Positions 1-47,265 of a DNA stretch of 64,000 nucleotides are shown piece after piece. The position numbers were made by a program, and so were the translations under genes. Numbering within the stretch: the stretch's first letter is position 1; each line of letters begins with the position of its first letter. The notes beneath the pieces were generated by a model, which made no database searches, was not told where the DNA came from, and saw only the letters and a list, made by a program, of their open reading frames with translations. Source of the DNA: Cenococcum geophilum (lineage: Eukaryota); contig CP158635.1 of NCBI GenBank assembly GCA_050273025.1, positions 5,146,001-5,210,000 on the forward strand, read 5' to 3'.

Positions 1-1982
1 ATAGAAGCTATTATAATACTAAGTAAAGACCTAGCGCTACGTTAATAGAGTATTACTATAGTAATAGAGGCTAGGGGTCTACTAGTATAAGTAAAGATTT
101 ACTATATATATTATAAAATAGATAGATATTAAATAGAAATAACGCTAAAAGAAAGCAGTAAAAGAGTAGAGAGTAACTATATAGAGCACCCTATAGTTAA
201 TATTAACTCTCCCTCTATATAAAGGATAGATAAAGGCAAAGTTTATAGCTGCATTCTTACTGTAAATAAAAGTCCTAAAACTAAATATATAGCTAGTAAG
301 TATTTATATCCTAAATACGTATAGATAGCCTAATAGTTCTCTCTTTAGAGTAAATCTTAAAATATAATTAGAGCTAATCTATTAGGCAATTACTTTATAG
401 TTAGATTTTATTATTAAATTTACCTATATACCTAGCCTATTAATAAGCCTACCTTAGTATCTACTATAAAGCTTTATTACGACCTTTATATTTTCTTTCT
501 CTTTTCTTTAGATAGGCTATAGTCTAGTAGTAGGTCCTTAGGGTTTATAAGGTGTTATATTCCCTAAAGTATTTACCTTTTTTATCTTTCCCTATTGTTT
601 TAAAGAAGGATTTAAAGCAGTCTTTTTCTAGCCTTAGTTAGCGAAAAGCTAATTATAGCTTTTTAGGATATATATTCTTAGGGGCTTTAAGAGAAAAGGA
701 ATAGCCTCCTTTATAGATTCTAGTAGTATTTTTCTTTATCCTTATTCTATTACTAGTTCTTTTTCTCTTACTAGTTTTTCTATATAGGGTCTTTAATTCT
801 AGTTTATTATATATTTAATCCTATTTCTCTCTCCTATTTTATATACTAGTACTATACTTAATTTACTATCTTTAGAGCTATCTATATAGTATATCTACTA
901 AGTCCCACTCTAGGGATTCTTATAGATTTTCTACTAGTCTTAGATATTCTTGTATAGCTTCTTCCTTACTACCCCTAGAGATAGAAAAGAATGCAGAAAT
1001 AGGAGGAGACCGCGGTTATTACTAATTTAGAGAAATTCTCTCTATTTTCTAGTTATAAATTAGTTGTTAAACTCTAGACGCTAGAGATAATAGCTGTTTT
1101 TGGCTGTAAAAGGTGCTTTATAGTAGAGTTTTTAGGGCTAGAACTGGAGCTAGAACTAGCTGCTAGTTCGTCTCTATCTTTGTCAATCTCTTCTATATAG
1201 ACCTCCTCGATTGCGTGGTTTTCCTTAAATTTTAGGATTTTAAATGCGTAGCTATTGCAAAGCTTTTCAAATATAATTCTAGGAGGAAAGAGACTATATA
1301 TATAAGAGGGTACCACGAACGGGGTAGACGCCTTCCTTGCTAGTATCTTTTCAAAACAAGCGAACCCTTGCAAAATGGTTGGGCTGTATTATTCTGCTAG
1401 CATACTAGTAGGGAGGGCGTTTGCCCTATACGTGTTACCCCCTTGTATATAGGGTAGGTGATAAGAAGACTGACGGTGATGCTGACGACGATTTATAATT
1501 GTCTCTTTATTGCCACTTAGTCAGTAATAGGTAATAGAAACAGGTGGTGAGTTATAGGGTGATAGGTACGATCTTGGTTGATAGAAAAAATCCTCTAATA
1601 ATACAGAAGCTTCACGTTTACGGTTTTAAGATTACTCTATTAAAAAAGAAAATGGAGATCTGACTGCCGGTTTGGGAGGGTTCTGTCGCTGTTTTTGGAG
1701 GTCACGTCGCTAAAATTCCCCGCCGCCTTAAGCCTCTTGCTTGCCGGTCTAACGTTAAGCCTCTCACTTACTGCCCCGTGCCCCTTGCTTTTCAACAGGC
1801 ATACTAATTCATCCCAGAAATATGACCCTTCTACGCGCCTGGCGCTGAAGCTATATATACTCTATGGCTCCTACCTCTGATCTGTTTAATCCAGGCCCCG
1901 TTTCTCTTATTCTTTGCCCTCCCATCTCCTTAACCCTATATTACCGCCATTATTGCCCTAAGTTCTCTTCTAGCTCCCTAGA

Positions 1983-4511
1983 ATGCGGCGCGCTTAATTA
2001 TCAAATCGTAGCTTATTATCTAGCGTTACTGACGATAAGTATATGGATACGGACAGCGACGGTGACAGCTATAGGATAGAACCGACCGTCCTCGATAGTA
2101 ATGCCGACAGTGATGCCGATAGTGATGCCGATAGTGACGCCGACTGTGATGCTGACAGTGGCATTAACCGTGACGCTGATAGCATCGCTGGATCTGACGA
2201 TGCTTGCGAAGCGCCCGCTTAATCATGGCTTTATGAGGATTAAGACCATCTACTAGAGTACTACCTTAAACAGTTAGAAGAGTTTAAGGAATCCGATTTC
2301 ATGACGTAGGACTACGCCGATAGTAGTATAAATCTCCTTAACCGTATTAAGGATCACTAGTATTAGTAAGTAAAAACCTGTTTAGCGGCTTTCTTTTAGG
2401 CCTAACCTTAAGCTAATGATTTCTAGATACTGCACCTATATAAGGAAGGACCCTAAGAAAATGTACCAACTCCTCTCGCTTTAGCTACTTTATAGCTTTT
2501 TCGACTAGATCCTAAATTAGAAACAAGGAAAGGGGGGTAGGAAATAGCGTAGGATAAAGCTTTTTAGCTCGCTTAGCGTATACTAGAAGTACTATTGCCT
2601 TATATATAAGAGAGCAACTAGAGGGAAAATCGCTAGTAAATTAAACCGCTAGATATATAAGGTAATTACGTTTCTAGTTAACCCTTTAAACTAGCAAAGT
2701 AAGCTAAAGCTAAGATATCTTTTCTAGGTGCTTTAGAAACTAGCGAAGAAATATAGCTTAAGTAATAAGCCGTAACAAAAACCCGCTATAGACGTAGAGG
2801 ATCTTGCCCTAGTTCTTAAGACCAACTTAGTTATAACGAGGAAAAGATATATAGTTAGGCGATATTAGATATAAGTCCATTTCTTACTATAACTAGGCCT
2901 TTATACCGCAAGCTGACCTAAAGCTCTTCTTAACCTATACTACCAATATATAATAATTATACTTATTTACAACCTAAAAGGCGGGCCTTATAAGATCGTG
3001 CCTAAGTTTATATTTAAATTTACTAAGGAATATCTTAGTATAAAAGAAGCGTACGTTCTCTTTCTACCTTATTCCTCTCCTTACGCTTATAGAGAACTAG
3101 TAATACTTTCCCGATTCCTAAGATTATCTTTAACCCTTTACTTATTTTTAGCCCTTACGTCTTTCTCCTAGGCCTTCTTTTTACTAACTAAGCTTTTATA
3201 GCCCCTAATCTAACGTCCGTAGAGTAGCTTAGTAAGCTATATATTAAGCCCAGGCGTAATAAGTTGCCGCTACTACTCCGTTTAGACCTAGACAATATCC
3301 CTATATTTCGGCGATTGATTAAAACTTTTTATAGCTATAAGGTCTCACCCAACTAGCCCTTACTATACTTAACCCTTTTGCTATAGATTAAGGACCTTAG
3401 CGCAATTACGGGATTTTAGCAGGTTGCGCGCCTATATAGTCTCCATTACGGCGTAGGTAAGGCATTTAATAAGAATAGTAAGTTCTATAGTATAGGGCTA
3501 GTTTTATTAAGACCTTTCTAACGCCTATACTACCTAGGTAATATAAGTGACGCCCTTTAGAACCTTATAATATAGTACGCGGACGCTTAAACATTCCTAA
3601 AGCACTACCTTCTGTGGCGTGTTGGCGTAGATACGTAGGTAATTGTTTAAGGCTTAGAGCCTTAAGAAAAGTTAATAAAAGCAGTATACTAAATAAGCCG
3701 ATTAATTAATCTGTGGCGGCTATAGGGCCTAATAATAAAACAATCCTTATCAGTAAACGAGGACCCGCGTATTTATTTCTTAGTTAAAGCTTAAACTAAG
3801 CTAAAGCACAGCCTTAAAAGTAAAGCTATAGGGAATATAGAATACTAAAAGCTTAGCCGGGAGATTATAAATAAAAGGCGACGTTAAAGAAATGCACTAT
3901 TAGAAAATATTAAGAAGAATTAGGACAATGAGTAAGCTGTAATTAATATTAAGCGGCAACTTTCTGGGGTTAAATTTAGCGAGGATATTAAAGCAACTTT
4001 AGAATCTAGCGATAATAGATTAGTTAAACACAAACGCCTTATTAAAGTAATTATAATGCTTTCTGGTATATTACTAGAAGATAAAATATATAGACGCAAT
4101 AATGCTATTAGTGCGGTTATAGACTACTATAATATTAAGGAAGGTAAAGTATATCGGCGGAATTATTACCAGAGATAGTTTAGGATAGATATCGCCCTTA
4201 GCAAAGTTAAGATTAAAGAAGATGCTAAGATTTTAAAAGCGGCTAAAGCGCTAGAGAGGGCAAAGTCATCCTTGTATAAGGAGAAAAGACTAAAAATATA
4301 CTTTATCTGCCTTAGGAATAAAAAGCTTACAATTAGTAAGCGTATATATAAGTTTTACACTCTAGCTGCTTTTATAAAGCATTTCCGATAAGCGTATCTC
4401 TCTAAACTCCCGTAGTAGGGTGAGATTAAATATAACGTTTGCGAAGTAACCCTTTAGCACAAAATGTATCTTTAAAACTATACGTTCCTTATATATAGGA
4501 CCTTTTCCTAG
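1983..4511 (+). pseudogene. RIP-inactivated DUF3435 tyrosine recombinase (Starship captain-type) with acidic N-terminus and C-terminal C2H2-like zinc region
   Basis: Manual translation from ATG 1983 gives an Asp/Ser-rich tract, then HLLEYYLKQLEEFKESDFMT*DYADSS, QLGLYTAS*PKALL, FKFTKEYL, NTFPIPKIIFNPLLIFSPYVFLLGLLF, VARLYSLHYGVGKAFN and *YADA*TFLKHYL, ending HKMYL*NYTFLIYRTFS*. Several short GT..AG introns. The stops are explained by C>T/G>A changes. Confidence 0.9.
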
Positions 4512-5029
4512 TCACTACACACTTATCTTATTATTCTTTATCGCTTTTTATTTTATTTTATTAGTTTATTGTCATCTAATCCTATCCTAGTGTTTAATAG
4601 AATAGATATAATAACTAGGATTGTGTAATTTGTTTAGGGGGGCGAGGGGTAATAGGTGAGGTGAGGGTAAGGTAAAGGGTGAGGTAAGGGGTAAGGGTCG
4701 GTTATATAGAATAAACATCTTTCTTTATTTATTTGCACTAAATGTAAGATTCCCTACAGTTATCTAGTGTGTAAGGAAAGCTATGTGATATTAAATAGCG
4801 TTCTGCACTTTAAAAGCCATACTTAAACAGTTTATAAAATTAAGTATTGAGTTCTAAAGACTAATTCTATATAGCCTTTCTACCTTTATTAGGAAATAAG
4901 TATATTTGCGCTAGGAAGTTTAGTAGGGCTAGGAGAAGAGATGGGTGTGATTTGGCGGGGGTGTGATTTTTAGTGGGGGTTATTTTTGGTAGGGTCTATT
5001 TTTGACCTTACGACAAATTAGGTGTTCTA

Positions 5030-5470
5030 TTTTTAGTCTCCTAAAAGCCTTAGGCTTTTAGGATTAATTTTCTAAGGAGCTCCAAGTCCGAGTAGTAGCT
5101 ATGTCCCAGTAATGGTCTCCTAGTAGCCCTGGACTCCTAGGATTAAGCTCTAAGGAGCCTTTAGGTTTTAGGGGAATTAGTCTTCTAAGAACCTAAAGCT
5201 CCTAGGAGAATTAGTCTTCTAGAAGCCTTAGGTTCCTAGGGAATACGTTTTTAGGAGTTCTATAGCACTTTATAATGGAATAATTATTTCTCCTAGGATC
5301 GCATCCCTTCTGGGATCGGCCCTCCTGGACCGAAAGCCCTCCTAAAATTAAATCTCTTAGATATTAAGCCCTCCTAGAAGCCCTACCTAGATAATTCCTA
5401 GTGGCCTTAGGCTTCTAAGGTAAAGCTCCTAGTAGCTTTAGCCTCCTAGAAAAATTAGTCTCTTAGGAGC
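5030..5470. repeat. Degenerate short-unit repeat tract (CTCCTAGGAG / CCTTAGG cores)
   Basis: Recurrent cctagg, ctaggag and gccttaggct words with no ORF. Confidence 0.5.
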
Positions 5471-6039
5471 CGAGTGCTAGTAATGGCAGCCTCTAAAAAT
5501 TATGCGGCTAAAAAAATATGCTGCCTATAGAAAGTGTGCGGCCGCAGCGTCTGGGAGCAACTAATAGCCTAGGAGCATTACCTAAGAGTAATTTATTTCT
5601 GGTGGCCTTTCCTGTTATATAGCCTTGTTATTTTTGGCAGAATATTTAACAGCATTTAAGCTCTTGGCCGGGGTATCCGGAGGGAAATATCCTCTTGGGA
5701 TGGGGTGACCTGCTTGGCGCCGTGCCCTATTATCTGCAGCGGACAAACAGTATCCCAGTATACGTTTCGATTTGAGGACGCTTATGATATTGGGTTCTGA
5801 ATTTCGAGCGTAACGCAAATTTATTGGGATGTATATATAATGGACAGGTGTAGTTAAACAACGTACCCCTAACCAACTATTGACAAGAATAAATGTAAAG
5901 AGAAAGGATAGCTGAATTTTAAACGTATATCTGCCCATGTGCCAAAAGGGCGTGCTTTCTGTAGAGCTAAGTGTAGGACTGCAAATTATTAAACTGGCCT
6001 CCTCTTATGAAATTATGCTAAAATTCTACATTTGTAGTA

Positions 6040-6225
6040 AAAAGTCTAACTAGTAAAAGCGTATGACCGGTAAAAAGTTTGACTAGTAGAGAGTTTGACT
6101 AGTGAAAAAGCCCGACTGGTAAAACCGCGAGACTAGTAAAACGTTTGACTGGTAGAGAACTCTAAATAGTATAAAGGTTGGACTAGTACTAAAGTTAGAC
6201 TAGTACAAAGGTTAGACCAGTATAC
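6040..6225. repeat. ~17-bp minisatellite (GACTAGTACAAAGGTTA-like)
   Basis: About 10 units with GACTAGTA/GACTGGTA core at roughly 17-bp spacing. Confidence 0.8.
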
Positions 6226-6829
6226 GAAATCTTGCTGAATTGTAACCAGGTAAGTATAGCTGACTTCCGGGTTCCCGTGCTTAAGGGGTTGCGTAGGTCC
6301 AGTTTTAGGCCCCTCTTAGGATTGTTTTCTAGCGCATTCTAAAAGATTGGTCTCGCAGCAACCACAACGTGGTGCGCGATAAGAGGATACAATAATGCAT
6401 ACCCGAAAGTTTTGTGGTGCATATGCAGCGCCAAGTATGTCTGGCTTGAGATAAGGAGCGACGCAGAAGGATTTAGTTGACTTAGCAACCGCGCCACGCC
6501 AATCTACTTTGCCTTATGATCGCCACAACGCCGAGCTGAAGATCCAACGCGCCAGTCTAGGGCAGAATAGCTTCTTGCCCGCTTGCTATCTTTGTTCTGA
6601 GAAAATAGTACGCAAATAAGGGTATAGCTAGAACGGGTTGGCCATCCTTCTTGCTAGCGGTGGCGACTTGTTACTTTTACTAAAGTTGAACTACCAAAAC
6701 GTTAACAAAAGTACCGCGTTTAAATCTATGGTAATAAGATATATTAGGCGCGGTAGAAAGAAGGCAAAACAGGTAAGACTTAGACTAGTTGTGACTTTCT
6801 GCAGACTATTATTCTCCGGATGTAACCGT

Positions 6830-7260
6830 TCGTCAGACTAGTTGTTCTCTAGACGTAACTGCTCTCCAGACGCGACGGCTCCAGACGTGGCTATTCCAGA
6901 TGTGGCTGTCAGACGTGGCGTTCTTGCTCTCCAGACGTGACTGTTCTCCAGACGTGGCTGTTCTCTAGACGTGGCTGTTCTCCAGACGTGGCTGTTCTCC
7001 AGACGTGGCTGTTCTCCAGACGTGGCTACTCTCCAGACGTGGTTCTCCTATTTGGCGCTGCCAAGAGGACTGGTCATTTTGGGCCAATTGGGCATCCGAT
7101 AATTCTCCAGACGTGGCTATTCTCCAGACGTGGCTGTTCTCCAGACGTGGCTGTTCTCTAGACGTGGTCCTCCTATTTGGCGCTGCCAAGAGGACCGTCA
7201 TTTTGGGCCAATTAGGCATCCGATAACCCTCCAGACGTAGCTGTCCTCCAGACGTGACTA
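6830..7260. repeat. 17-bp minisatellite CTCCAGACGTGGCTGTT with a twice-repeated ~60-bp insert
   Basis: Many near-identical units. The insert tcctatttggcgctgccaagaggac...ggcatccgataa occurs at ~7045-7102 and ~7170-7226. Confidence 0.95.
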
Positions 7261-8117
7261 GGATCTGCTAACTACGGTTAGCTAAAAATAGAGGGTCCTA
7301 GAATTGGGTTCTAAGAATGATATTTGAAGCGCAGCTGAAAACTTATGTAAGTTATGATAAATAACCTGTTCTCCCGTAGCAAATATTATCGAATAGGCCA
7401 TATAGACATGTAAAAGGTACGATTCCTTGAGCACGAACGAAGATTCGTAGCAGAGAGAAAGGTATAGTTTCTAGAAGTTGATGCTTAGTTAAGAGCTTGG
7501 TTTTTAAAAGTTATTGCTTAAACAAGCTTCTGCGGCGCTGCTGGTGGATTTAGGCAGCAACTGACATGGGGATTGTATTAAAGCGTTGGAGTCCCGCGAA
7601 ACCAGCTTCCGCCTAGGCGCAGCTGTTCCTTTGCTTCTCAACCAGGATCCTTTTTTCCTAACTAAATTTGGTTAAGTGCCAAGTGTCTAATTATGGTACC
7701 TGGACCGGCCTTGCTATCGGCAACGTGTCCTTTTTACTTTTCGTCCTCAGCCGTATAGCCCTCAGTCGTATAGCGGTAAGCCTTTGCTGCCTCGTAGCAC
7801 GGCGTGATTTACTTTGTTCCCAGAATATAATCTTATTCCTCTCTATTTCAACTATGGCTTGCATTGGGACTTCAACGGTGGGATCTCGTGTCAGGACTTC
7901 GACAAGAGCAGAAATGTGGCGGTGCGGCGGTGCTTCGGGTATGGGCCGTTACGGAGCGCTAAAACGCCTCTCAACAAGGGTATGGCCGTAGCGGGTCGGC
8001 CATCCTCCCTGCTAGCGGTGGCGGCATCAAGTGCCAAATCATCCTCATTGTGTATATAAAGACATCCTACATTCTGCAAATAGAATAACTTAATTACAGC
8101 TTCCAAATACAGAGACT

Positions 8118-8588
8118 CTACAATAACCACGGGACAAACTTAACACATTGAGGATTGGGCAGGCTTAACGCCCTCTCCTTATCAGTCCAGCCGTTCTGAA
8201 ACTTGGAAAAATAGTCACATTCTCCCGTCGCACACGTCCAAAACCCCAACCCAGGCATGCTACTCTCAGCACCCGCTCGATCCTGACGACTGGCGGCGCC
8301 ACAATAGCAGCGTGGGTTACTACCACGTATTCCACGGTCATCGTCCCATGTAATCCATCTTTTGTGGTGATCTTGTAGGCCTTGACTGCAATTCCAGTGG
8401 CAGCGGACGCAGATGTAGTACGGTCGGCCGACATTGCCATTTTGATTGCCTGTCACGGTACATCGATATCGAGGCCTCCAGCCACAGCGGCGGCAGAGAG
8501 GAGAGTTAAGAGGAAATTGGGGCTGTAGTGGTCGGCTTAGTGCGTGCAAGATTTCGGACATTGGAACGTCTACATTTACGTTAAGCAA
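8118..8588 (-). CDS. Small GRF-type zinc finger protein
   Basis: Open ORF with CRRC...NGNVGRPYYICVRC, WITWDDDRGI, NPRCYCG...SRQDRAG and GFWTCATGECDYF. The start is uncertain; there may be an upstream exon from ATG 8661. Confidence 0.8.
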   Translation of the reverse strand: MLNVNVDVPMSEILHALSRPLQPQFPLNSPLCRRCGWRPRYRCTVTGNQNGNVGRPYYICVRCHWNCSQGLQDHHKRWITWDDDRGIRGSNPRCYCGAASRQDRAGAESSMPGLGFWTCATGECDYFSKFQNGWTDKERALSLPNPQCVKFVPWLL

Positions 8589-9416
8589 GCTCTGTCAGGT
8601 ATACTTGCGGGGACTAACTAATATACGTAGTGCTACTGCCTCCCAAGGTCTGAACGAGCATTGTTGCGGCCATTAATCCGTCAAACTGCGTGGAATACCG
8701 TCCGGTCAACGTCGATGCAACAAGGCGTTGGGATGTCAACGCCCTAACCTGCGACGGCTGGAGGGGCATGATGGATGATGCGTGTTACATAAGCAATGGT
8801 CTAGGATTGAACCTATATTTTATTGGCTGCAGCCCCGGCTTGACACCAGCTGCTCACGTTAGCTAGACCAGTTCTGCCCATAATAAGAACGGGCGATTCT
8901 ACAGTCGCTAGCGAAATCGGCTTCCGCCCAAGTGCAGGTGCAACATCGCCTGTAAGCAAAAGGCTTGGCGCCCCACTTTACATATCTAGTAAGGCGCCAT
9001 GCTTGTTTGCACGTGATTTGCCACGGTACGAGAAAATACTTCTCTATCACAGTATGAGCCCACAGGGGTGTGCGGGTCGGCCGCCCTCCCTGCTGGCGGG
9101 GGCGAGTTTAAAGTATTTATGCTTTAATAGTCTGCTGTAAATACCGCTAAATATGCTGCCGCTGAAACCGTTCCGTGCAAAGAGGAAGTCGCCTTGCAGC
9201 CAAGCATGTGGCAAAAGTATTCAGATTCACCTCACGCAGCAGTCTCGGCAATGAGCTTTACCCAGAATAGTCAAACGCCATGCTCAGCCCGACTCTGACC
9301 AAGCATCCATAATGCAGGTAGACGGAGCCTATAACTATGTAGACCATACCTCATAACTTGACATTGAATTCGTGTATCCATCACTTACTCCGCAAGATTT
9401 TCAAATACGAAGCCGT

Positions 9417-11060
9417 TCACACGACTCGCACGTTGAGCCTCTGTCTCACTACGTAGTCACTCTGAATCCACCCAACTCCAATCCTCGTATACTCGCCATC
9501 CACACTGGTCGGTCTGACAACTAATATGTAGTACTTTTTATCCCTCAGCCCATGCTCATTCCCATGAAACTCCCTCCCGACAACAACACACCGTTCATCA
9601 TGAAGGTCTCCACTCGCCTCGAATACCTCCATCATATGCCATCCATGACCAAGATGGCACGATCGAGGTTTCGTACCCAATCCGCTTCGTCTTCTTTCCG
9701 TCAGACCTCTGCCATAGGAGATTCCTGTGAAGGTACCGCTGAAAGATGCCGTATCTGCTTTCACACCCTATAGCGCGTGCAATACGGGCCTCTAACCCGG
9801 ATATTGCAACACATCTGTCAGTTCCATCTGTCAAGCCACGCTTCGAGTAGCCCTCGGAAAGAAAGTAAATGAATTCCATGGTACGTTGGTCGCCCGATGC
9901 AAGGAGCCGGTCCGGGAAGTTTGGATCAAGCATGAAGAATTCTTTTCGAAGGGAGCTGAGTAGAGTACCTGGGTTAGGAAGATGTGAGGCTATTAAATAT
10001 TGTTGAGCTCTTACCTTTCCAGTCTAGTAAGGTTTTCGCAGTAAACCCCGGTTCCACATTCAAAATATGTCTGATTGGCGCTAAAATGGATAGTTCGTCG
10101 TGACAAAACTCTTTCTTGCATTACCCAGGCTCGCGTGTTAAGCCGAGCCTTCTCCACATCGTTGTCAAAATCATCAATGTCGGTGCAAACATAGAATCAC
10201 CGGCCTGAATTGTCTTAAACATAAACATACTCACTGCTTACGTCCCGATCAAGGAATCCCGCATTTAAGTTGACAGCCGAAGTTGCAGCAATCGTGCAGT
10301 AAGCCGAAGCGAAGACGCCTTCCATACATTTGGCCTCGTGCTCCCAATCTTTCTGGTTCCACTAAATTGTGCAAAGTGAGTCGATCCGGAGGTATTGGAC
10401 ACCAAGTTCTCGAGTCACCTGGATGGCGTCACGAAATGTCTTTGGTAGCTCAGATAAACTAAACATTCTCAGCCGTGATTCGATATTGTCGTCCGTTGTG
10501 CAGAACTTGAGTTTTTCCTCTTTGGTGGGTATGCCCCAGCAATGGGACAACGCGACGTATTTCATTCTGTCGTTTTCATTGGGACGGTAGAGACGCAAGA
10601 CATTACCCGGATCCTTCGGACCGCCGACGCAGAGGAGTCTCGTTGGCAATTCTGTATTGGATTCAACATGGTGGTCATTGCACTTGTGGGACCTATCGCA
10701 CCAACGAAGCCATGCGCGAAGTAGTGCAAAACGTGCAGGATTTTCCGCTTCGGGTAGGACTGGGAAGCTGATCTGGACGTCTTGACCAGTATCAGCCAAA
10801 CATTCTGCGGTAGATATATGCAATAAGTAATGGCTCTGCCTAGCGCATGTAAGTTGAAGGTACTAACCTGCATCAGAACACAGCCGGAGAATTCGAGGCC
10901 CGTCGCTCCCTATTTTTAACGCTGGCAATTCCCGAACGATTTGAACATTTAGTTCATCATTACAGTGGCGTTTAACTGTGCGGAGGAGCAGAGCGCAGAG
11001 CCGGCAATTTTCTCCAGCAACACTGACTTTAGAAAGATTAATGTTGCAATCAGCAGCCAC
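9417..11060 (-). pseudogene. HET-domain (PF06985-type) gene remnant, 5'-truncated, with stops and a frameshift
   Basis: LPTRLL, YVALSHCWG, LPKTFRDAIQVTRELGVQYLRIDSLCTI*, LNTRAWVMQERVLSRRTIHF and VPSWSWMA motifs. In-frame stops at ~10362 and ~10200-10220, a frame break near 9600, and introns near 10810-10865 and 9970-10013. Confidence 0.9.
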
Positions 11061-11186
11061 AAGGTAAGTTGAATCGGTAGCACACTCGATGGCAAGCGCT
11101 TAAAGAATTCCAAAGCAAATTTATTGTCGAAGGTATGGCGCCAGCTGCCGAGCTACATTCATATTAGTCCCTGTTCAAAGGCAGAC

Positions 11187-11619
11187 ATTCACAGGTCTAC
11201 TTGCCTCCTACACCACCAAACGCGCCAGAATCAGCAGCAGCCTCGCATGTCAGGATTCGCAGATCTACCTACATCCTACACCACCAAACGCGCCAGAATC
11301 AGCAGCAGCCTCGCACGTCAGGATTCGCAGGTCTACTTACCAACTACACCACCAAACGCGCCAGAATAAGTAGCAGCCTCGCATGTCAGGATTCGCAAGT
11401 CTATTTACATCCTACACCACCAAACGCGCCAGAATCAGCAGCAGCCTCGCATGTCAGGATTCGTAAGTCTACTTACTATCTACACCACCAAACGCGGCAG
11501 AATTAGCAGCAGCCTCGCATGTCAGGATTTGCAAGTCTACTTACACCCTACACCACCAAACGTGGCAGAATTAGCAGCAGCCTCACATCTCAGGATTCGC
11601 AGGTCTACTTACTTCCTAT
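11187..11619. repeat. 68-bp tandem repeat, ~6.3 copies
   Basis: CTACACCACCAAACG starts at 11208, 11276, 11344, 11412, 11480 and 11548 (exact 68-bp period). Confidence 0.95.
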
Positions 11620-12346
11620 AATCAAACATGTTAGTACAATATCTAAAACAAGCGCTTACCCTCTATACCTACCCCGTTAGCTAAAATCACAATGTCTAGT
11701 TACTGTTAAGGCCTACCTGGAACAAGCTATCCTCCCATGTTTCTTGGCCCATCGGAATAGGTTCAATCGTAGTTAATAGAGATAACGATATGATAAACCA
11801 GATAGTATAGAAAGACTCCTACGCTTATAGAGCTTGGCTTTAAGTGCGCCTTTGTGCTAGGGTTGAGCGATAAATTCTTAGACTGTGGTGCGGATGCGGG
11901 GCAGTTCAATCGGCTGCTGACACGTAGCCCGTCCAAAGGCCAGCTGATCGTCATCTCTGCATATACCCAACCAAGCAAAAATATTCCCATAGGATTGCTA
12001 GAACAAGTTTAGTGACAGGATAATTAATGGTATTTGCAGTAGGTGATTAGGCCATAAAATACGTTAAACTCGCCCCGGCTGGCAGGGAGGGCGGCCGACC
12101 TGCACCGACCACGCCCCTGTTAAGGGTCTACTTCCTAAGATTGAAGAATAGAGAATATGGAATGGGGAACTGTGGTTGGTGTTGTCTTGAGTGTGGCGTT
12201 GTGGCGGTGATGCACTGCCTCCGCTGCTCGGTGTTTGGCTTGGCGCTGTTGCTGAGTCAACTGAACCATGCCGAACCCCCAAACCCCTCGAGATGACCAC
12301 CGTTCAACTTCAGGATACAGCCCATCTCATGCCATGACATACGGCT

Positions 12347-12721
12347 ATGTCTACACCGCAGCCTCCTCTGAAAGAATCTCAGCATACCACACCGCCTTCA
12401 AGCCTCGTAGGCGCACCTTTGACGCCTCCGCCAACCGACGAGAAAGCCTTCACCCAAGCTCCCCGAGTTATCGCGCTTCTCAGAGACATCCAAGCGGGAA
12501 GACACAGCAATCAAAACCCGTGGACATCCTTTCAGCTTACACAAGGGGAATATGATGAGACAAAGCGTCGGCTTAGGCAAGACGAGTCGCTATTTGGATT
12601 TGTTAAGGACAAGATACGATACGTAGCCTCTGGCGGGGAAGAGGCGCCAGCTGATGATGCCAGTCGGACATATGACTATGGCGGCAGGAGGAATCAACTT
12701 GTTATTCGCATGCCTACTTAG
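12347..12721 (+). pseudogene. 5' fragment of a conserved fungal hypothetical gene (PLTPPPTDEK...DKIRYDY...LVIRMPT), 3'-truncated
   Basis: Protein-like ORF with a probable intron after DKIR, ending abruptly after RMPT. Family recalled from memory only. Confidence 0.55.
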
Positions 12722-12784
12722 CAGCACCAAAGTAGAGCGCTTTTGAGCTTCTGTATAAATAAAGGCTTTGTAGCGATAGGTAAA

Positions 12785-13026
12785 AGAGCCGGATGAAGGG
12801 CGGTATCCGGAGCGTATATATTCATTATCTCGCTGCCAAATTAGCAGTTCATGCCATGCGAGCTCGCTCGGAGGCATATTCCAGGCACCATCCTCTTGGC
12901 GGAGGCATCTGCAGCGAAAATATCCTCTTGGGATGCCCCCACTAAGCCTATAGTGGAATGGCCTGCTTGGCGCCCCTGCTTCATTTTATTTACGGGATAC
13001 TGCCACTTTCGCTGCGTTTTAGACAT
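12785..13026 (-). pseudogene. N-terminal fragment of a PAQR/haemolysin-III (IZH-like) membrane protein
   Basis: WHELLIWQRDNEYIRSGYRPSSGSF matches the PAQR N-terminal W..DN.YI..GYR motif. The transmembrane part is absent and the sequence is frameshifted upstream. Confidence 0.65.
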
Positions 13027-14922: not shown

Positions 14923-15160
14923 ATGGCGAATCTGTCCTAATTAGAGATAATCGAGACAAAACCTATCGGAGATGGGTTAATGCCTTTCGCGACTCGTTTA
15001 ATTCGACCTGTACAACTGTAGGCATCTCTAGTTCCTTGGACGCACTGCATCAGATAAGCAGTGAAGGTAATGTCTATATGCCTGTCGCGAGTTCTCTAAC
15101 TCCCGTAGGACTTGAAGATATTCTGCTTGACCTGGTGTTAGCTCTACAGAACCTCTTTGG
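14923..15160 (+). pseudogene. 5' fragment of a FunK1-type kinase paralogue
   Basis: atggcgaatctgtcctaattagagataatcgagacaaaacctatcggaga aligns by eye with 47815 onward, including the first intron position, then breaks off into repeat-like DNA. Confidence 0.75.
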
Positions 15161-15551
15161 ATGGTAAGATCTCGAAAACCACCACTGTTGGTTCCCCTTC
15201 ACAGTAGACGACTACTACGCCTTACCCCGGGCCTCCTGTGTGTAATCCTCATAGATGCGCATTGGAATCAACGTCCCCCAACCCCCAATTGAAATCAACG
15301 ACAATACCTCACGATCGACGGACGAGCGAACGAACGAGCGATCAAACGAATACACCCCTTCCTAACCCCAGGGCGATCACCCGCGGAGCACGTCCGCGCC
15401 GTATTCTGCCTAGCAGCCTGGATAATAACCCTCCACGGTGTTCCTTGTCTCCTCTCTACGGACTAGTCACCCCTAGAGAGGGCCTAGTAACTGGGGCCTA
15501 GGTGCAAAAGATACCTAGCACATACACATACACATCCCGCTCGCCTTTTGG

Positions 15552-16104
15552 TATTACGGAGCTAGTTCTACACCGTTGAAAGGCTCTAGGGGGGGAAGGG
15601 TGTACATGGTAAACAACAGAGGTGGCATATACAGGGGACGGCCACAAGATATAAGAAACTGCTACAAGCAATAGCAATCAATTAACGGCAGGGCCTAGCT
15701 AGGACGCAGTGAACCCTAGCTACGGATGAGCTGGAATAAGGATGCAGTGGTTCCAAGGAGATCCAATATCCAATTAAGATCAGGGCGTAGCTACAGGCTG
15801 CAATAGCTGTAGACTACGTGTAAAGACAGTCAACGGGGTTTTTCATCCGACCGAGGTGGCTCGTAGGGTTTTTCCTCCCCAACATATCAGGGGTTTTCTT
15901 CCTGTATAATACACAAGTTTCCCCTATATACAGAGTAGTCTGCGTGGGCCTAGCTAGGATCCGTATCAGACGTTAATCAAAGAACATAATATATCATACT
16001 TCGACACGAATAGACGGTTCGAAAGAATGGACTTTCACGTATCACAGAGGTATCACAAAGGTATCACAAAAGGGATATCACAAAACGCGTGTATCATTTA
16101 TTAC
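15552..16104. mobile_element. Possible solo LTR
   Basis: Starts tattacgga (RIP form of TGTTACGGA, as in the 22548 LTR) and ends ...TTACA, with internal short repeats and TATA-like words. No target-site duplication found. Confidence 0.4.
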
Positions 16105-32400: not shown

Positions 32401-34992
32401 TATACCTAGTAGAGGAATATAGCCTACTACCTAAGACGCACTTTAGAGCTAGGAAGCAAAGATTAACAATATATACGCTATCGTATCTCTATAAGGACGT
32501 ATTTAGAGTATAAAGAGGAAAGAAGACGCTGTCTCTAGTATTATTTAATATTAAGGGTATGTATAATAATATGGCTATAAAGCCGGAAATTAGGAGATTA
32601 TAGCAGCGTTAAATACCTTAGACGATTATATAATAGGTGCAGGACTTTTATATAAACTATTAAGCCTATATCCTAGTTAATGGATACACATTAGAGGTAT
32701 AGGCGCTCCTATAGGCGGGTCTCCTATAGGGATTAGCACTAGCCCTAATACTCTTTCTATTCTTTAATGTGGATCTTATATAAAACACACCTAAAAATAG
32801 CAGCTTTATAGCCTTTGTTAATGACTACTTAGTATAGGTTATAGGCCCTATAGCGGAGGAAAACACATAGATTATCTAGGGCGAGATTATACCAATACTT
32901 AAGAAATGGGAGAGGACTAGTGGAGCCCAATTTAAAGCGAAGAAAACGTTATTTATCTACCTTACTAGATATAAAGAAGCAGGCAGGGATACCACTACGC
33001 CGCTCCAATTTAAAGGAAAAGGGATCCCCCCGACTTAGGAAGTTAAAATCCTTAAGGTGATCCTTAATAAGGAGCTACGGTTTAAGGCGCACCTAGTAAA
33101 TAAGGTAGGCAAAGCCACTAAGGTAGCGCTAGCGTTGCGCAGATTAAAGGGACTGTAGTTTAAGAGCGTTAAGCAGCTAGCTAAGAGCTTAGTCCTATTA
33201 GTAGTAGACTACGCGTTGCTAATATGGTACCCGCTTATAATATAAGAGTTAATACAGCTCCTCTAGTAGGCGCAGAGGATTACGGTATAAGCTATTATTA
33301 GGGGGTTCCGCTTTATTACCCTGCTAATAGTAAAAGTAAAAGCTAGCTTACTCCCTTTTAAGTAAAGGCTGCGTAACCAGGCTATCGCGTTCTGGGTATT
33401 AATCTATAAACTAGGCAAATTATATCCTTATTAGATGATTTAAAGACAAAGGCTCTACAGACGGCACCGGTCGCCGCTTTAGAGGATAGTAGAGATATAT
33501 AAGGATATCCAGGTAAATAGGGTGCTAGAGGTTAAACCGTATATATACCCGCTGTAGGTAGCTAAGCTAAATATAGTAATATGCAAGGACGAAGAGTATA
33601 CTTAAGCTATTATTAAAGACTATAAACTAGGGTAGGTTAACATATACGTTAATATATCGGTACGTAATAGTAGGGCAGGAGTTAGCGTATATACTACGCC
33701 ATCTAAAGTAACGCTTTTAAAAACGGTAGCGGGCTTTAAGTAGGCCGACGCCTACCTAATAGAGCTTCTAGCAATTAGCGAGGCAGCTAACTGGCCATAG
33801 GACCCTATATACACGGCTATTAACTAAGTAGGTTTTCCAATACCTACTTCTAGTATAAGAATATTCTTTAACTCGTAATTAGCATTACTATTAGTATAGA
33901 GCTAGAGGGCTAGAGTTTGCTAGGAAATAGTTATAGAGATCTTAAAGAAGCTCTAGCTAAACAATATTACGCTATACTAGATTCTAGGCTATTTAGGATT
34001 TATAGAAAACGAGAAGGCCAATAAGCTTACTAAAGTAGCGATAAGACTAGAGAGCGAAGAGCCACTATAGAGAGACGGCCTCCTATAGTACCTTATAACG
34101 CAAGCCTTAAAAAAAGCTAAGATAATAATAGGACCGCTTCTATTAGGAAGATCTAATATAGGTAAGTTTATAAGGAAGATTAACGTAGTACTCTACCTTA
34201 GAAAGGCTATAGGATTATACTAGTAGCTAATTAGCCTAGAAGCTACTATCTTTACGTAGCTACGGACTAGTAAGTTATTTCTAAAGGAATATCTCCACAA
34301 AATTAATATATTAGAGACGGCGTTATACAACTATAGGCTTATAAAATTAATATAGCACTTCCTTTTCTTTTATAGGAGGTGGGCGCAGCAGAGGATTAAA
34401 CTAAGAGAGTAATATAGAGATCGATTTAGGGATCTATTATATATATTAGGAGGCTACTTACGTAGATAAGAAGGAGGCAGGAGTATTAACGGCCCAATTA
34501 AGCGCTAGAAGCCAGACATTAGCGTAGTTAAAGCTATAATTAAATTTATAAAGGAGACCGGACGTCTATACCTAAGTATATAAAATATAGAGAGTATAAA
34601 AGCCAATATTAATAAGTAAAGACTCCTAAGAATTCCTTCTCTAATTATCTAACCAAATATACCGCGAGCCTCCTCTATACATACCTCTACTAGTACGTTG
34701 CCGATTAAGAAGCGTATAATACTGGAATAGCCCTATAGACACAAGGCGTTAAAAACTACTTACTTAAGCTCGCCTTTAAACTCTAACTTTCTTTAATAGT
34801 AACACATTACTTTCCTTTATTTTTTCCTTAGTTAAGTATAGTATTAGGTAATAGATATATAGTTCTTATAGTTGGCTTCTAAACTAGAGCAAGTATATTA
34901 ATAGCAGGAAGTATTTAGTTAGCGCTCTGTAACGGCCTATACCCTAAATAGTACATGGCTATAATAGAATATATATATATATATATATATAC
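29407..34992 (+). mobile_element. Full-length RIPped Tad1-like LINE (ORF1 with CCHC knuckles; ORF2 APE endonuclease, RT, RNase H), 13-bp TSD
   Basis: Degraded knuckles at ~30545-30710, GNFNWHNLL*GG, TIDLIF, YRPISLLPTLGKAL, GLL*GLALALILFLFF, AFVNDY and LY*ILGY..NEKA..L. (TA)n/(CATA)n tail. GTTTTCGTGGCGT at 29394-29406 and 34993-35005. Confidence 0.95.
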
Positions 34993-35005
34993 GTTTTCGT
35001 GGCGT

Positions 35006-37336: not shown

Positions 37337-39109
37337 TAGAGTTTAAATATAATTATATAATATCTGCCAAGAGAGTAATAAAAATCGGGTATTTGTATTA
37401 CCTTAATTATATATCTAGAAATATTATTATTAATAAGATTAAACAATAGAAAGAGACTTGGAAATTAATTAACTTAATAAAGGGCCCTTATATTATAATT
37501 TAAATCCTAAAAAAATTCTACGGAAATGCCCAATCTACGTATATATTAAGACGAAGTTATCTAAGCAGGACTTATAGAATATATTGACGTAGCTTAGTGT
37601 ATAGTTTAGAGCTAATTTCACGCGGCTAACCGAGCTAGCTGTTAAGTCAGATGCTAGGCCAGTTACAGCGATACCGCCCTTACTTAGTATTATTATTTAA
37701 GGACATAAGTAGTATTTGCACTTGTGGTTGAAAGTTAGGGACGAAGTTGTAAGTCGTTACACCTCTTTGCTTCTTTATATTTAGTTTCCCTTAAATACAC
37801 ATTATAACAGCTATATATAAACTGTTCTATTTTAGAGAACGTATAACTAAGCGCCAACGTAGAGACTTTTAAGCGTCGCCTAAAGTAGGTAAACTACCTT
37901 ACTTGTACGATTAAACCTAGCGCTTAGCTAAATTATCCTTACATAAATCACCACTTCTAGTTAAAATGCCCCCTCTTTCTAAATATAAATTTTCATAAAC
38001 AGTTTAGCGCTGTGCAACTTTTATTAAGTATTTTAGCATAATTCTATATCGATATTGTTACCAGCGCCTTAAGAATTGCAAGCGGGAACTTCTTATATTC
38101 TATTACCTAGAGATAAATAGCGATTAAAAGAAAATGCGACGCTTAATAAACTTCTAGAAAATAATACAAGCTAGAAAGTTATCTTAAAAAATATACTAGG
38201 GAGAAGCAAACGAAGCTATATTAAATATTATTACTTTTAATTACAGAAAGTCCGGGACAATTTAAAAACAGCTAAGGTTATAAGGCTATATAATACGTAT
38301 TTTAGTACTACGCTAAAACTATATAAGTACTTATAATGTTTATTAAACGTAAAGCCTAAATGTAGGAGCCCATTGCTAAAGAACTAGCGCTTCCTTAGCC
38401 TACGGTAGAGGCTATATACTAGCAACTCCAAAGAGAAGGACCTACTATACTTAGGAATACTAAGAGGAAAGGGTAAAGAAAGTCGCGTAATCTAAAAGCC
38501 TCTTAAAAGGAACTAAAATCCCTTCCTTAAATACTATTAGGGTTATACAGCGGCGATAAATACCGCACTATAGATGACCTAGTTAACAACTCTTAAGGAG
38601 CGTGACCCTAAGGGATTGGATTAGTAGGCACTGCTAGGTAAAGAATACGAGTACTATACTGGATTCTAATCTCTCTAGAAATACAACTTGGAAAAAATAT
38701 TGCTAGATAGCATATTATATAAGAGTAGGGTATAGTAGAGCCAGTAATCTTTTTAGACTGGAGTAAAGTAGATTTAAGTGGAGCTGCGGTGGCACTAGGA
38801 TATAGATAAGGGGCTCTAGGCGATATAAAAGTTAGATAGCATAATAAAAGAGCTATATTTTATTTTAATAGCAATAAGAACGCTAGGGAAATACAATAGA
38901 ATATTAAGGAGGAATTGTTAAGAGTAGGGACTCACTAAGAGTAGGGACTCGCCGAGAGTAGGGACTTGCCGAGCTATATCTAATAAAGTTTAATTAGTAT
39001 CATGTTCCTAAGTCGTTTCTTATAATGCTGGTAAAGGAATATAGTGCTAGGGAAGTACAGGCTAATTAAAAGCCAAGAAGCTAAGGACAAAAACAAATCC
39101 TAGCGCTCC

Positions 39110-39415
39110 ATTCCCCCAGGGAATTATTCCCCTAGGGGATTTATTCTATAGGGCTTTATTCCCATAGGGCTTTATTCCCGTAGGGCTTCATTCCCATAAG
39201 GCTTTATTCCCGTAGGGCTTCATTCCCATAGGGCTTTATTCCCATAGGGCTTCATTCCCATAGGGCTTTATTCCCCTAGGGCTTTATTCCCCTAGGGGAT
39301 CCATCCCATAGGGCTTTATTCCCGTAGGGCTTTATTTCCCTAGGGGATCTATCCCATAGGGCTTTATTTCCATAGGGCTTTATTCCCCTAAGGCTTCTTC
39401 CCCCTAGGGCTTTAT
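39110..39415. repeat. 16-bp minisatellite CCCATAGGGCTTTATT
   Basis: Regular tandem units with a quasi-palindromic CCC..GGG core. Confidence 0.95.
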
Positions 39416-40441
39416 ATCTATTTCTGGCTTACTTCTATTTTCGGCTTAATTCCTTAACTACTTAACTGGGTATATATGCAAGGGCCCCCTAGGGCTCTTA
39501 TCCCCTAGAATAATGCACACTATAGTTAAAAACAATATCTACTTATTCCGATCTTTTCCTATTTAATATCTTTATAATAAGATAGTATATATTTGTTGTA
39601 TTAACGCTACCGGTTATTTTAACTAATAGTTTTTTAATTAACTTAGTATTAGCCTAGTTAATAAAAGGATAAATCTTCTAAAGTTAAGCTAGGCGAGTCT
39701 AGATAAGAACCCGTACCAGACGTCTTAAAATATTAGTTAAAGGCGAAGCCATAGAGGGTTAATCGGGTGAAGGTTAATGGTATAATAATACACACTAGAT
39801 GATTTCAAGCGTAAGGTTATCTAAAACTCCTTAGAATTTCTTCGGTTACGTATATATTAGTATAAAACATTTACCAATACCTCCCCTTCCTACACTAAGC
39901 GATTTACTTTTTAGTTGACCTTTACTAAAATCTAATAGCCGTATAAATCTAATAGCCGCGTAATCCTAATAGCCCGTATCACCTACGCTGCTAGGCTCGC
40001 TAGCTTATAACTAGGTTAGCACGAGCAGCAATATAAACACTCTAGTGTTTGCCGCTTATACTAATCACTAAATTGCAATAATGCTTAGGGTATTCTTTGT
40101 CAGCGCTATCCCTTAACCCACTGGCGTCCTACGTTATTAATAAGATAATAGTCCGTATATATAGAATACCAAAAGTTCGTTAATTTAGGACTCCTTATTA
40201 GCTAAAGTCTTATTAATAACGTAGTGCCTAAATTAGCGGGTTAAGGGATACGGCTTACAGATTTTCTATCCCACCCTCTTGCTAAAGCGCTTTAAACTAC
40301 AACTACTCCGATAAAATTAGAATGCAGAGCATCCATAATCTATAGCTTTAGGTAGTAATTCTCCTTATATTATATAATACACCTTCCAACCCTTTATTAT
40401 ACTATATTTACGCGTTCCTATAAGCGCCAAAAACGGGTTTA

Positions 40442-40615
40442 CGTATGTATATATATATATATATATATTCTATTATAGCTATATACTATCTAAGTATAGG
40501 CCATTATAGAGCGCTAGCTAAATACTTCCTACCACTAATATGCTTGCTCTAGTTTAGAAGCCAACTATAAGAGCAATATATCTATTGCTTAACACCATAC
40601 TTAACCAAGGAAATA
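40442..40615 (-). mobile_element. Short 3' fragment of the LINE in reverse orientation
   Basis: Reverse complement of the LINE 3' UTR (34825-34992), including the (TA)n/CATA tail. Confidence 0.85.
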
Positions 40616-40643
40616 ACGCCATCTCGACTTGTTTTTGTAGCGT

Positions 40644-40974
40644 TTCCTAGACATTAGCGTAGTTAAAGCTGCGATTTACTTTGCGAAGAAGATAGGACGT
40701 TTATACCCAAGTAAATAAGATACAGTAAGCGTATAAGCTAATCTCAATAAGCGAATACTCCTAAGGATCCCCTTCTACCTATACCTCCTAACCAATTACA
40801 CTGCGAGCCTCCTAGTGCGTCGCGTTAAGTAATAGACACGTAGCTTGCATAGTTGGCTTCTAAACTAGAGCTAGTACTCTAATAGTAGGATATATTTAGC
40901 TGGCTTTTAGTAACGGCCTATACCCTAGGGGTGCATAGCTATAATAGAATATATATATATATATACATACATAC
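40644..40974 (+). mobile_element. Complete ~330-bp non-autonomous LINE-tail derivative (SINE-like) with 13-bp TSD
   Basis: Matches the LINE from 34512 onward with an internal deletion and ends ...atatacatacatac. Flanked by gtttttgtagcgt (40631-40643) and gtttttatagcgt (40975-40987). Confidence 0.88.
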
Positions 40975-41099
40975 GTTTTTATAGCGTACACTCAGACATA
41001 TTTAAAAGTTTTAAAAAGGACACGTTACTAATAGCAAGGCTAGTTTAGGTACCCGTAATACACCCAATACTTAATTAAATTTTAGTTTAGCGGACCATA

Positions 41100-42499: not shown

Positions 42500-43625
42500 A
42501 GTAGTTGCGGCTTCAGTCCTATAAGCTAAGAGGTTATAGGAGCTGGGGGTTCCTACGAGCTAGGTAATTATATAAGTAGGGTAATCTAACCTAGTGCCCT
42601 CTAATTAACGCCTAGCGTGCAAATAGGGTATTAATAGGTTTAATAACTTCATAGCTTTAATCCTGCGAGCTAGGCGATTCTACAAGCTGGGTAATTGTGC
42701 GAGCTGGGTAATCGTGCGAGCTAGGTAATTATACGAGCTAAATAATCGTACGAGTTGGATGCTTATAGGAGCTGGCTAATCCTATAAGCTAGGTAATCGT
42801 GCGAGCTAGGTAATTATGCGAGCTAGGTAATTATGCGAGCTAAATACTCGTGGGAGCTGGCTGATCCTATAAGCTAGGTAATTGTGCAAGCTAGGTAATT
42901 ATGCGAGCTAGGTAATCATGCGAGCATAATGCTCATGGGAGCTAGGTAATTATGCAAGCTAGGTGATCGTACGAGCTAGGTAATCGTGCGAGCATAGTGA
43001 TTGTGCGAGTATGGTGCTTGTGGGAGCTAGGTAATCATACAAGCTAGGTAATTATACGAGCTAGGTAATCGTACGAGCTAGGTAATCGTACGAGCTAGGT
43101 AATTGTGCGAGCTAGGTAATTATATAAGCTAGGTAATCGTATAAGCTAGGTAATTGTACAAGCTAGGTAATCGTGCGAGTAGGGTAATTATATAAGTAGG
43201 GTAATCTAACCTAGCGCCCTCTATTAACGCCTAGCGTGTAAATAGGATATTAATAGGTTTAACAACTTTATAGCTTTAATCCTGCGAGCTAGTCAATCCT
43301 ATAAGCTAGGTAATTACGCAAGCTCGGCGATTATATAAGCTAGGTAATAGTAGGGGTCTAAGTATAAGTCTGTCCTGCTACCTTTATAAAGTTAAAAATA
43401 ACCACTAGTAAATTATGCGAGCTAGGTAATCCTACGAGCTAGTTAAAAGCTATAAAAAGATTTAATACTAGCTAATTCTTATAGGATTTCTAGGCTTATA
43501 TAATTACCTAGCTTACAGCATTAAAGCCGCATAGTCTATGCAGAATGCTTATTTATACTAGTGCGTAATTAATATTGCAGCTCTAGTTATGCGGGCTAGG
43601 TAATTATACAAGCTAGGTTAGAGGT
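42500..43625. repeat. 17-bp minisatellite CGAGCTAGGTAATCGTG with a duplicated ~110-bp insert
   Basis: Dozens of units. The insert gtagggtaatctaacctag...tagctttaatcctgcgagcta occurs at ~42575-42672 and ~43195-43292. Confidence 0.95.
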
Positions 43626-46427: not shown

Positions 46428-47115
46428 GAAATTTCTTATAAGAAAGGATTTTCGCAATCACGTTCTTGTTTTCTGGCGTTAAGAGTTAAGGCGTCAATTA
46501 GGATTTCATTGGCTCGGTATTGTTTTTCTATTAGTTACTTCTATGTTAAGAGTATCTCATTATCGTTTACATATACGTTAGATTGAAGGGATGTCTTAGA
46601 ATTAACCTTCGTTAGCCCATCCTCTTTAACTTTAGGAATGCTGAGAATAAATATAGGATATCTCTCTTAATATTGGCCTAAGTTATAACTCTGAAAACGG
46701 GATCTTGTTCTAAGAACTGGATCCGATTCTAAAGACTATATCCTAATTCTAGAGACCGTATCCCAATTCTGAGCTAAACGTACCAAACGTGACTAAAAAG
46801 GTATAGCGTTAGGCTAAGCGGTTCAATAGTCTTAGAAGAGAGGAGCTATTTTTAGTTCTAGCTTAAGTTACAATTCTAGGAACGGAATCTAATTCTAAAA
46901 CTAAGATCCTAATTTAGGTTCACGAAGCAGACCAATTAACTACTACAAAAAGGGCGCGATTTTAAAAAAGGATCCGGTTCTAGGAACTAGATCCTAGTTT
47001 ATAGAAAATAGGTCGATTAAGTACTATAAAATGCTATATTTAGCATATTAGGTTTAGCTCGTTTTAAGACTAGCTATATAATTAATCGTAGGCGCTTATA
47101 CAACCAACCTAATAA

Positions 47116-47265
47116 TATAAGGGGGTGATATAAGCGGGCTGCCGGCCCTCCCTACAAGTTTTGGTGGCATTATAGTAGCGTCCCACTAAAATACTACTAA
47201 TATAGTTATAATGCCACCAAAACTTATAGGGAGGGCCGGCAGCCCGCTTATATCACCCCCTTATA
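47116..47265. repeat. Near-perfect hairpin: 59-bp arms (47116-47174, 47207-47265), 32-bp loop, each arm carrying the dispersed GC-rich motif
   Basis: tataagggggtgatataagcgggctgccggccctccctacaagttttggtggcattata and its reverse complement, with one transition mismatch. Confidence 0.95.

Follow-up and report, generated by a model that had tools for sequence, protein, structure and literature searches.

Gene-carrying, non-autonomous elements bounded by terminal inverted repeats (TIRs) are known from plants as Pack-MULE and Pack-TIR elements. In fungi, NLR/HET proteins are assembled from a set of building blocks, namely the HET, NACHT/NPHP3_N, NB-ARC, WD40, ankyrin, TPR and PNP_UDP_1 domains, and the genes that encode them vary greatly between strains. 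Here we describe a short repeat that brackets such genes in a 64,000-nucleotide stretch of Cenococcum geophilum DNA (contig CP158635.1, positions 5,146,001 to 5,210,000; hereafter the window) and in at least 125 further loci from metagenome contigs. On balance, we regard this motif as probably the conserved core of the TIRs of non-autonomous DNA elements that carry NLR/HET genes. We favor this reading because the ends are paired, face outward and are sharply bounded, because gene-less relatives of the miniature inverted-repeat transposable element (MITE) type exist, because the repeat extends beyond the core in a way specific to each pair of partner ends, and because identical units occur in different contexts.

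The repeat-bounded units resemble Pack-MULE and Pack-TIR elements in that TIRs bracket host genes, no transposase lies inside, and short MITE-like relatives occur. Unlike the plant elements, they carry whole, often intact genes of a single class (NLR/HET) rather than fragments, belong to a fungal host, show no 9–11-bp target duplication, and have ends unrelated to any family testable here. A second point of comparison is provided by the mimp elements, described in the available portion of PMC3599309 as MITEs in the promoters of effector genes of Fusarium oxysporum. Our motif and mimps as portrayed there are both short TIR repeats from whose position a fast-evolving gene class can be predicted; mimps, however, are complete small promoter elements, whereas our motif stands as a single, outward-facing end on each side of the gene, which therefore lies inside the element. 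According to the accessible part of PMC13449251, which cites Gluck-Thaler et al. 2022, Starships often capture NLRs, and flanking transposable elements are enriched in one NLR subgroup, whose internal repeats are highly conserved. Starships likewise mobilize NLR/HET genes in Pezizomycotina, and the window itself contains a degraded captain. The motif-bounded units differ from Starships in their size of 0.15–10 kb and in lacking a captain, and at the further loci, at least 125 in number, no captain was seen within 4 kb. Units of NLR/HET genes bounded by inverted repeats or MITEs are not described in the literature searched, which took in the accessible parts of PMC12258605 and PMC13449251 but no subscription journals, no supplements and not the species' own genome paper; nor did a concrete vehicle for single NLR/HET genes turn up in that literature.

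Paired ends of repeat-bounded units

The window consists of AT-rich fungal DNA of the type left by repeat-induced point mutation (RIP), with a less degraded block at 6–22 kb, and the host is a RIP-active ascomycete. An initial annotation made from the sequence had listed nine copies of the motif, all of which are present at the positions and on the strands it gave. A profile built from these nine copies (nhmmer) finds ten matches in the window at E ≤ 8.8e-6, the next best having E = 9.9; the tenth, at 1302–1345(+), is new and is the partner of the copy at 1404–1446(-). A 27-nt consensus tail matches five times in the window at ≤3 mismatches and never in 100 of 100 dinucleotide shuffles. The repeat consensus is ACAAGGGTGTGGCCGGAGCGGGTCGGCCGCCCTCCCTGCTAGCG, with a conserved core of 44–50 nt and the ACA end facing outward.

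The ten window copies form four inverted pairs and two solo ends (6616+ and 7974+), always with ACA outward. This arrangement was missed by the initial annotation, which had placed the copies in otherwise unrelated flanks, a description at odds with the similarity we find between 18960(+) and 29395(-) (236 nt at 89%), 9062(+) and 12120(-) (≈98 nt at 79%), and 47117(+) and 47264(-) (59 nt at 98%). The copies are therefore paired termini. They delimit a 10.4-kb unit at 18960–29395 (inverted arms 18960–19182 and 29171–29395), a 3,059-bp unit at 9062–12120 (arms ≈9062–9166 and 12008–12120), and two MITEs, one of 148 bp at 47117–47264 and a RIP-mutated one of 145 bp at 1302–1446. The first of the solo ends, 6616–6665(+), has ACA outward at 6616 and a 17-nt tandem array at 6843–7263 in its interior to the right; the second, 7974–8023(+), heads a 1.09-kb unit at 7974–9061 that contains an open reading frame (ORF) for a GRF-type zinc ribbon at 8121–8594(-).

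We scanned metagenome contigs with an exact 22-nt pattern from the 3' half of the core and recovered at least 125 further loci, among them at least 24 different contigs that belong to a single assembly. The profile finds at least 154 copies in these loci, and at least 150 non-redundant copies when the window is included; the loci were picked by pattern, come from several samples and probably represent one species or its close relatives, and these numbers are not copy numbers per genome. Judged by the 99.5–100% identity of contigs L014–16 to window positions 7970–9817, some of the metagenome contigs clearly appear to come from the same species as the window. Contigs of four runs from other isolates also show, in the parts of the window that they cover, a multi-copy core with the canonical ACAAGGG and variable left flanks, with 11, 11 and 6 contigs having loose ends at position 18967. 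Complete, non-redundant inverted pairs of 3.1–3.9 kb in L048, L005, L028 and L056 mirror the 3-kb unit of the window; the pair in L048 encloses a 530-aa HET ORF, and a NACHT fragment is the only large ORF inside that of L056. Relatives of the 148-bp MITE occur in L008 and L090, bringing the MITEs to four in all, with no others in the window and locus sequence searched. All four lack genes and are flanked T/ACA...TGT/A, where slashes mark the repeat edges. The family thus has two forms: MITEs of 145–148 bp that are little more than two ends, and units of 1–10 kb whose ends bracket a whole gene.

The proposal that the copies delimit gene-carrying units is supported. Homology from one locus to another breaks off precisely at ACA. 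Per-position conservation is at most 0.61 at positions -22 to -1 and rises to 0.81–0.95 at +1 to +4, and the outer flanks differ in all 14 copy pairs that have at least 150 nt of common interior. The GRF unit is 92–99.6% identical over 1.1–1.5 kb in three different left contexts (the window, L014–16 and L053), and 90 of the 150 copies have a flank common to no other copy among the matches listed and the window. Partner ends also resemble one another past the core: over the next 40 nt, ungapped identity is 57–88% in five of five pairs tested, each value falling in the top 0.2–4% of 10,964 between-locus pairs (mean 31%). The sixth pair, 9062/12120, was aligned over its 98 nt as given above. This ungapped test replaced a BLAST-anchored arm test that detected one of the six partner-arm pairs. 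Like TIR elements, these units have inverted repeats at both ends and many copies in unrelated flanks. Of the two alternatives put forward in the initial annotation, terminal repeats of an unrecognized DNA transposon family fit these data best.

Several observations weigh against this assignment, in addition to the pattern-based choice of loci. The outer flanks of 60 of the 150 copies recur in classes, and CGCC[AT]C lies within 14 nt of 47 of the 150. A transposon that inserts at random would not be expected to give this pattern; the TIR reading needs either a preferred target or later insertions beside the repeat. No target-site duplication surrounds any of the six larger complete units. A search for empty sites or footprints, using repeat-less outer-flank ends and a regular-expression scan, produced only retroelement junctions and no clean case. 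Transposases are absent from the ORF scans of the window, from its read-through scans (22–29.5, 29.4–34.9 and 1.5–4.5 kb), and from the 73 ORFs scanned within 4 kb of the repeat around the further loci. If nt 2 is taken as the first position of the repeat, the flanks of the four MITEs would suit a duplication of TA or of 8 bp, as far as four cases in AT-rich DNA can indicate.

A link to hAT transposons was considered and set aside. The weak Dimer_Tnp_hAT match at ≈28681–28884 (E 2.8e-4) lies just outside the conserved interior module, which ends at 28897, has no counterpart in the other loci, and is taken as unrelated debris; the 8-bp target duplication of hAT elements was not found around the larger units. 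The terminal CAAGG fits YARNG, which we take to be the hAT end consensus, and this fit is a lead only.

NLR/HET genes on the inner side of the repeat

The specificity of the cargo for NLR/HET genes is a second feature that the initial annotation missed. The loci contain 86 ORFs of at least 200 aa, of which we scanned 73 after dropping 13 that were duplicates from overlapping loci or overlaps in alternative frames. NLR/HET-type ORFs, defined by any of the seven domains named above, account for 38 of the 73, other Pfam domains for 11, and 24 have none. Relative to the nearest copy, 33 of the 38 NLR/HET ORFs are on the inner side, whereas 10 of the 11 ORFs with other Pfam domains are on the outer side (Fisher p 3.6e-6). 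Counted by locus, NLR/HET ORFs are confined to the inner side in 20 of 23, and to the outer side in two, L026, which has a weak core, and L075, whose core is fully palindromic. Either the 5' or the 3' end of the gene may face the repeat, at a distance of 150–780 nt for the nearest ORFs. The architectures include HET-NACHT-WD40, HET-NB-ARC-TPR, PNP_UDP-NACHT-ANK, HET alone and the GRF zinc-ribbon gene. The 44-nt end-repeat can thus serve as a sequence tag with which to find and delimit such units genome-wide.

Within the window, three copies had been placed 100–350 bp past the stop codons of the GRF gene and both HET genes. These distances hold roughly, the GRF ORF lying ≈98 nt from its repeat and the HET ORFs ≈300–550 nt from theirs. 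The 3,059-bp unit carries a frame-broken HET gene on the minus strand, with the HET domain in the ORF at 10365–10862, and a 68-nt tandem array at 11119–11662. The 10.4-kb unit combines RIP-degraded DNA with an intact HET ORF of 827 aa at 19555–22035(-), which is 100% identical to a protein named by its source as Cenococcum geophilum 1.58. The next-best relatives of this protein are named by the source as Lachnellula (66%, with a second match at 60%), and the other named relatives read in the list are ≈27–44% identical; such a patchy set of relatives would fit horizontal transfer. The RIP-degraded part of the same unit also contains a near-perfect palindrome of 2.5 kb at 23430–25944, with arms of ≈1.1 kb that are 88–91% identical.

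So tight an inner-side association with one gene class, 110–780 nt from the 5' or 3' end of the gene, together with a core far better conserved than its surroundings, could also be produced by an element that flanks NLR/HET genes as a cis-regulatory sequence or chromatin boundary and has spread by gene duplication with no role in mobility. We consider this explanation distinctly unlikely, given that the bracketed genes have unrelated architectures, that gene-less MITEs stand in RIP-degraded DNA, that a given unit can be found in several flanks and another has been inverted, and that the motif is inverted on the two sides with similarity running past the core.

Inversion, folding and candidate enzymes

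Loci L048 and L005 share both flanks (≈220–400 nt) and hold a 3.07-kb HET unit in opposite orientation relative to them, with the breakpoints of the inversion in the repeats; between the two loci the unit runs the same way and the flanks are reversed. The sole diagnostic difference between the arms, AT versus AC at nt 29–30, travels with the interior, and the exchange point therefore lies within nt 1–28. A check suggested by the initial annotation, whether inversion breakpoints map to the motif, is thus answered in the affirmative for this pair of loci. The inversion fits excision and re-insertion, recombination between inverted ends, or a site-specific crossover. Under the TIR reading, an enzyme encoded elsewhere in the genome would recognize the ends and move the units in trans; once in place, the inverted ends could let a unit flip and exchange, and this may add to the turnover of the NLR/HET repertoire, including the loading of such genes into a Starship. 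A bracketing repeat offers a testable mechanism for the duplication, inversion and exchange of NLR/HET genes.

The inversion also fits a live rival explanation, in which a site-specific tyrosine or serine recombinase acts on the core as on a lox/FRT- or attC-like site and cassettes excise, integrate and invert there. The core would then be built of short inverted arms, RTGGCCG and CGGCCRY, around an 8-nt asymmetric center, GWGCGGGT. An exchange between inverted copies within the first 28 nt is in keeping with such a site, as are different cassettes behind the same outer flank, the larger units without target duplications, the presence of a DUF3435 recombinase gene in the window, and runs of copies in the same orientation, 1–3 kb apart and each heading one unit (6616/7974/9062 in the window; L015, L034, L053 and L042). 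Integron attC cassettes likewise form arrays of gene units delimited by an imperfect palindrome, with a swappable cassette next to the flank. Our motif differs from attC in showing no excess folding, no covariation, no GTTRRRY-type core and no adjacent integrase, in the frequency of inverted pairs, and in its eukaryotic host.

The initial annotation had proposed that most copies fold and that they might be attC-like folded substrates. That most copies can fold is true only in a trivial sense: one can draw an inner stem, RTGGCCG/CGGCCRY with a loop of 8 nt, and an outer one, CAAGG/CCCTG, and none of the ten window copies is more stable than its shuffles at z < -2 (range -1.66 to +1.90). Compensatory changes, the second prediction, were not found by RNAalifold in 129 copies. 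The best structure that we could draw pairs 78.0% of cells, the shuffles reach 78.1%, and 373 of 500 shuffles equal or exceed the observed score; as the search pattern had fixed the 3' arm, compensation there could not show. The ACAACCC variant of the repeat breaks the outer stem without a change opposite. With folding at the level of shuffles, no covariation and an uncompensated variant, the attC-like proposal is not supported. Rfam gives no family at gathering score in the window and only a chance-level snoRNA match (E 3.4) near 18960. A longer stem across the ACA edge, formed by an upstream CGCCAC and a downstream GTGGCG, was tried and discarded, as the two show no association (odds ratio 0.53, p 0.13).

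The search for an enzyme gene bracketed by the motif, also suggested by the initial annotation, found none, either in the window or up to 4 kb away from the further loci. No DUF3435 or other recombinase occurs among the 73 scanned ORFs around the further loci. The absence of a recombinase there, the lack of both covariation and excess folding, the match between partner ends over 70–236 nt past the core, which points to transposon termini rather than a minimal site, and the gene-less paired-end MITEs typical of transposons together lead us to think the recombinase-site explanation unlikely, if still alive.

The same searches bear on the Starship. The initial annotation noted a copy just upstream of a captain, which is correct for the MITE at 1302–1446: downstream lies a RIP-degraded DUF3435 gene of the captain type of tyrosine recombinase (1503–4500(+); read-through frame E 1.8e-63), which is context and stands outside the repeat family. 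Starships have a DUF3435 captain at one end of the unit; none of the motif-bounded units contains one, the captain of the window lies outside them, and beyond the window no captain was found near the motif. A specific link to Starships is therefore not upheld, and the Starship-centered view is corrected: the motif tracks NLR/HET genes in the window and in the further loci, and a captain is nearby only in the window.

A more far-reaching reading, possible in our view but considerably less probable than the TIR assignment, is that the repeat would be the handle of a dedicated NLR/HET cassette system, in which an enzyme excises, re-inserts, flips and swaps the units and feeds them to Starships. 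By analogy, such a system would be a eukaryotic counterpart of integron cassettes or of segments flanked by recombination signal sequences, with a retroelement lineage specialized on the same site. If it exists, it would generate diversity in the NLR repertoire.

Two states of the repeat, ACAAGGGT and ACAACCCT (alignment A2, columns 29–33), differ by an exact 5-nt inversion of AGGGT to ACCCT, which gives the ACAACCC variant and is present in 26–36 of 129 copies. This local inversion is in keeping with an alternative in which the motif is a GC-rich quasi-palindrome without a dedicated function, its sole effect being that of a fragile site or a hot spot for recombination within AT-rich DNA degraded by RIP. 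Rearrangement and homology breakpoints that map to the motif, and a retroelement that nicks precisely at its edge (see below), would agree with fragility. A 44-nt sequence that is highly conserved over 150 copies while the flanks diverge, with a consistent outward polarity and a specificity for one gene class, would not, and we regard this alternative as very unlikely.

Retroelements at the repeat tip and neighboring features

The outer edge of the 29395 repeat is occupied by a RIP-degraded non-long-terminal-repeat (non-LTR) retroelement, a long interspersed nuclear element (LINE) at 29407–34992(+) with an RVT_1 match at ≈32325–32994 (E 6e-10). It is flanked by an exact 13-nt duplication, GTTTTCGTGGCGT, at 29394–29406 and 34993–35005. 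A derivative of this LINE that resembles a short interspersed nuclear element (SINE), here called T, is 125–170 nt long and shares the LINE 3' end and a (TATG)n/(TA)n tail. Two T insertions, L015 3803–3972 and L019 3847–3971, carry the exact duplications GTACACCCTCAAC and AACGCCACGAAAAC. In all three resolved LINE/T insertions the point of entry lies between repeat nt 2 and 3, and the duplications, of 13, 13 and 14 nt, all begin at nt 3. The LINE ORF in L012 contains a zf-CCHC domain, and a T fragment in the window at 7937–7962(+) stops 12 nt short of ACA in the 7974 copy.

At all seven loci with LINE homology, 12–185 nt separate the LINE 5' end from an ACA end, and the orientation is the same. 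Beyond nine of 12 non-redundant LINE/T 3' ends stands a correctly oriented repeat copy, in six cases no more than 250 nt away and in three at 1.25–5.5 kb; these loci were selected for having the repeat, and only position and orientation count as evidence. The "alternative ends" of the form ACGT(ATGT)n that follow the same flanks are due to LINE/T insertions. Such insertions explain the recurrent flank classes only in part, because the duplications show that one of these flanks, U1, already abutted the repeat. The 10-kb unit has the U1 flank on both sides, in inverted orientation.

The constant position and orientation of the LINE in seven of seven loci could suggest that the motif is itself the 5' head of this LINE/SINE family. 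We hold this to be extremely improbable: it is contradicted by the exact 13–14-nt duplications, which show that the retroelements inserted beside a pre-existing repeat, and neither the 90 of 150 copies with unique flanks nor the MITEs and inverted pairs fit it.

With the repeat taken as a TIR, the LINE/T pair has the appearance of a site-specific retroelement whose target is the terminal-repeat tip of another element. Known site-specific non-LTR retrotransposons include R1 and R2 in ribosomal DNA and Tx1L inside the Tx1D DNA transposon. The LINE/T pair has the expected reverse transcriptase and, like R1/R2 and Tx1L, enters a repeated target at a single position, always in one orientation, and leaves target duplications; what sets it apart is the target itself, a TIR's terminal dinucleotide junction. 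It would provide a second case in which a retroelement is directed at the tip of a repeat belonging to a DNA element.

Two T-type ends also occur in the window as a 536-bp inverted pair at 40441–40976. Inside it are two inverted flank-type ends separated only by ACTTGT (near 40630), which might be all that is left of a repeat-bounded unit since lost. ORFs with a PD-(D/E)XK nuclease domain (PDDEXK_12) are found on the outer side of repeat copies, beside the U1 flank class, at 16933–18667(-) in the window (E 1.1e-3) and at 1572–3212 in L019 (E 1.2e-17).

Two further length differences separate the window from other contigs. A foldback or MITE-like insertion of ≈227 bp at 18674–18900 (arms of 67 nt at 85%) is skipped by contigs of two other runs, which join 18660–18672 to 18899–18909. 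An 8.4-kb stretch, 9818–18255, is missing from the 99.5–100% identical metagenome contig L015, where 9817 is joined to 18256 within a 269-aa open frame, and from three contigs of run X6.

Tandem arrays of 16–17-nt or 68-nt repeats lie at 5143–5484, 6041–6224, 6843–7263, 11119–11662, 39053–39463, 42573–43274 and 50439–50724, some 230–1,000 nt within repeat-bounded units and others far from any copy. A DUF6594 gene spread over three adjacent frames at 62553–63741(-) and a DUF7025 fragment at 52685–52882(-) are probably RIP-damaged genes.

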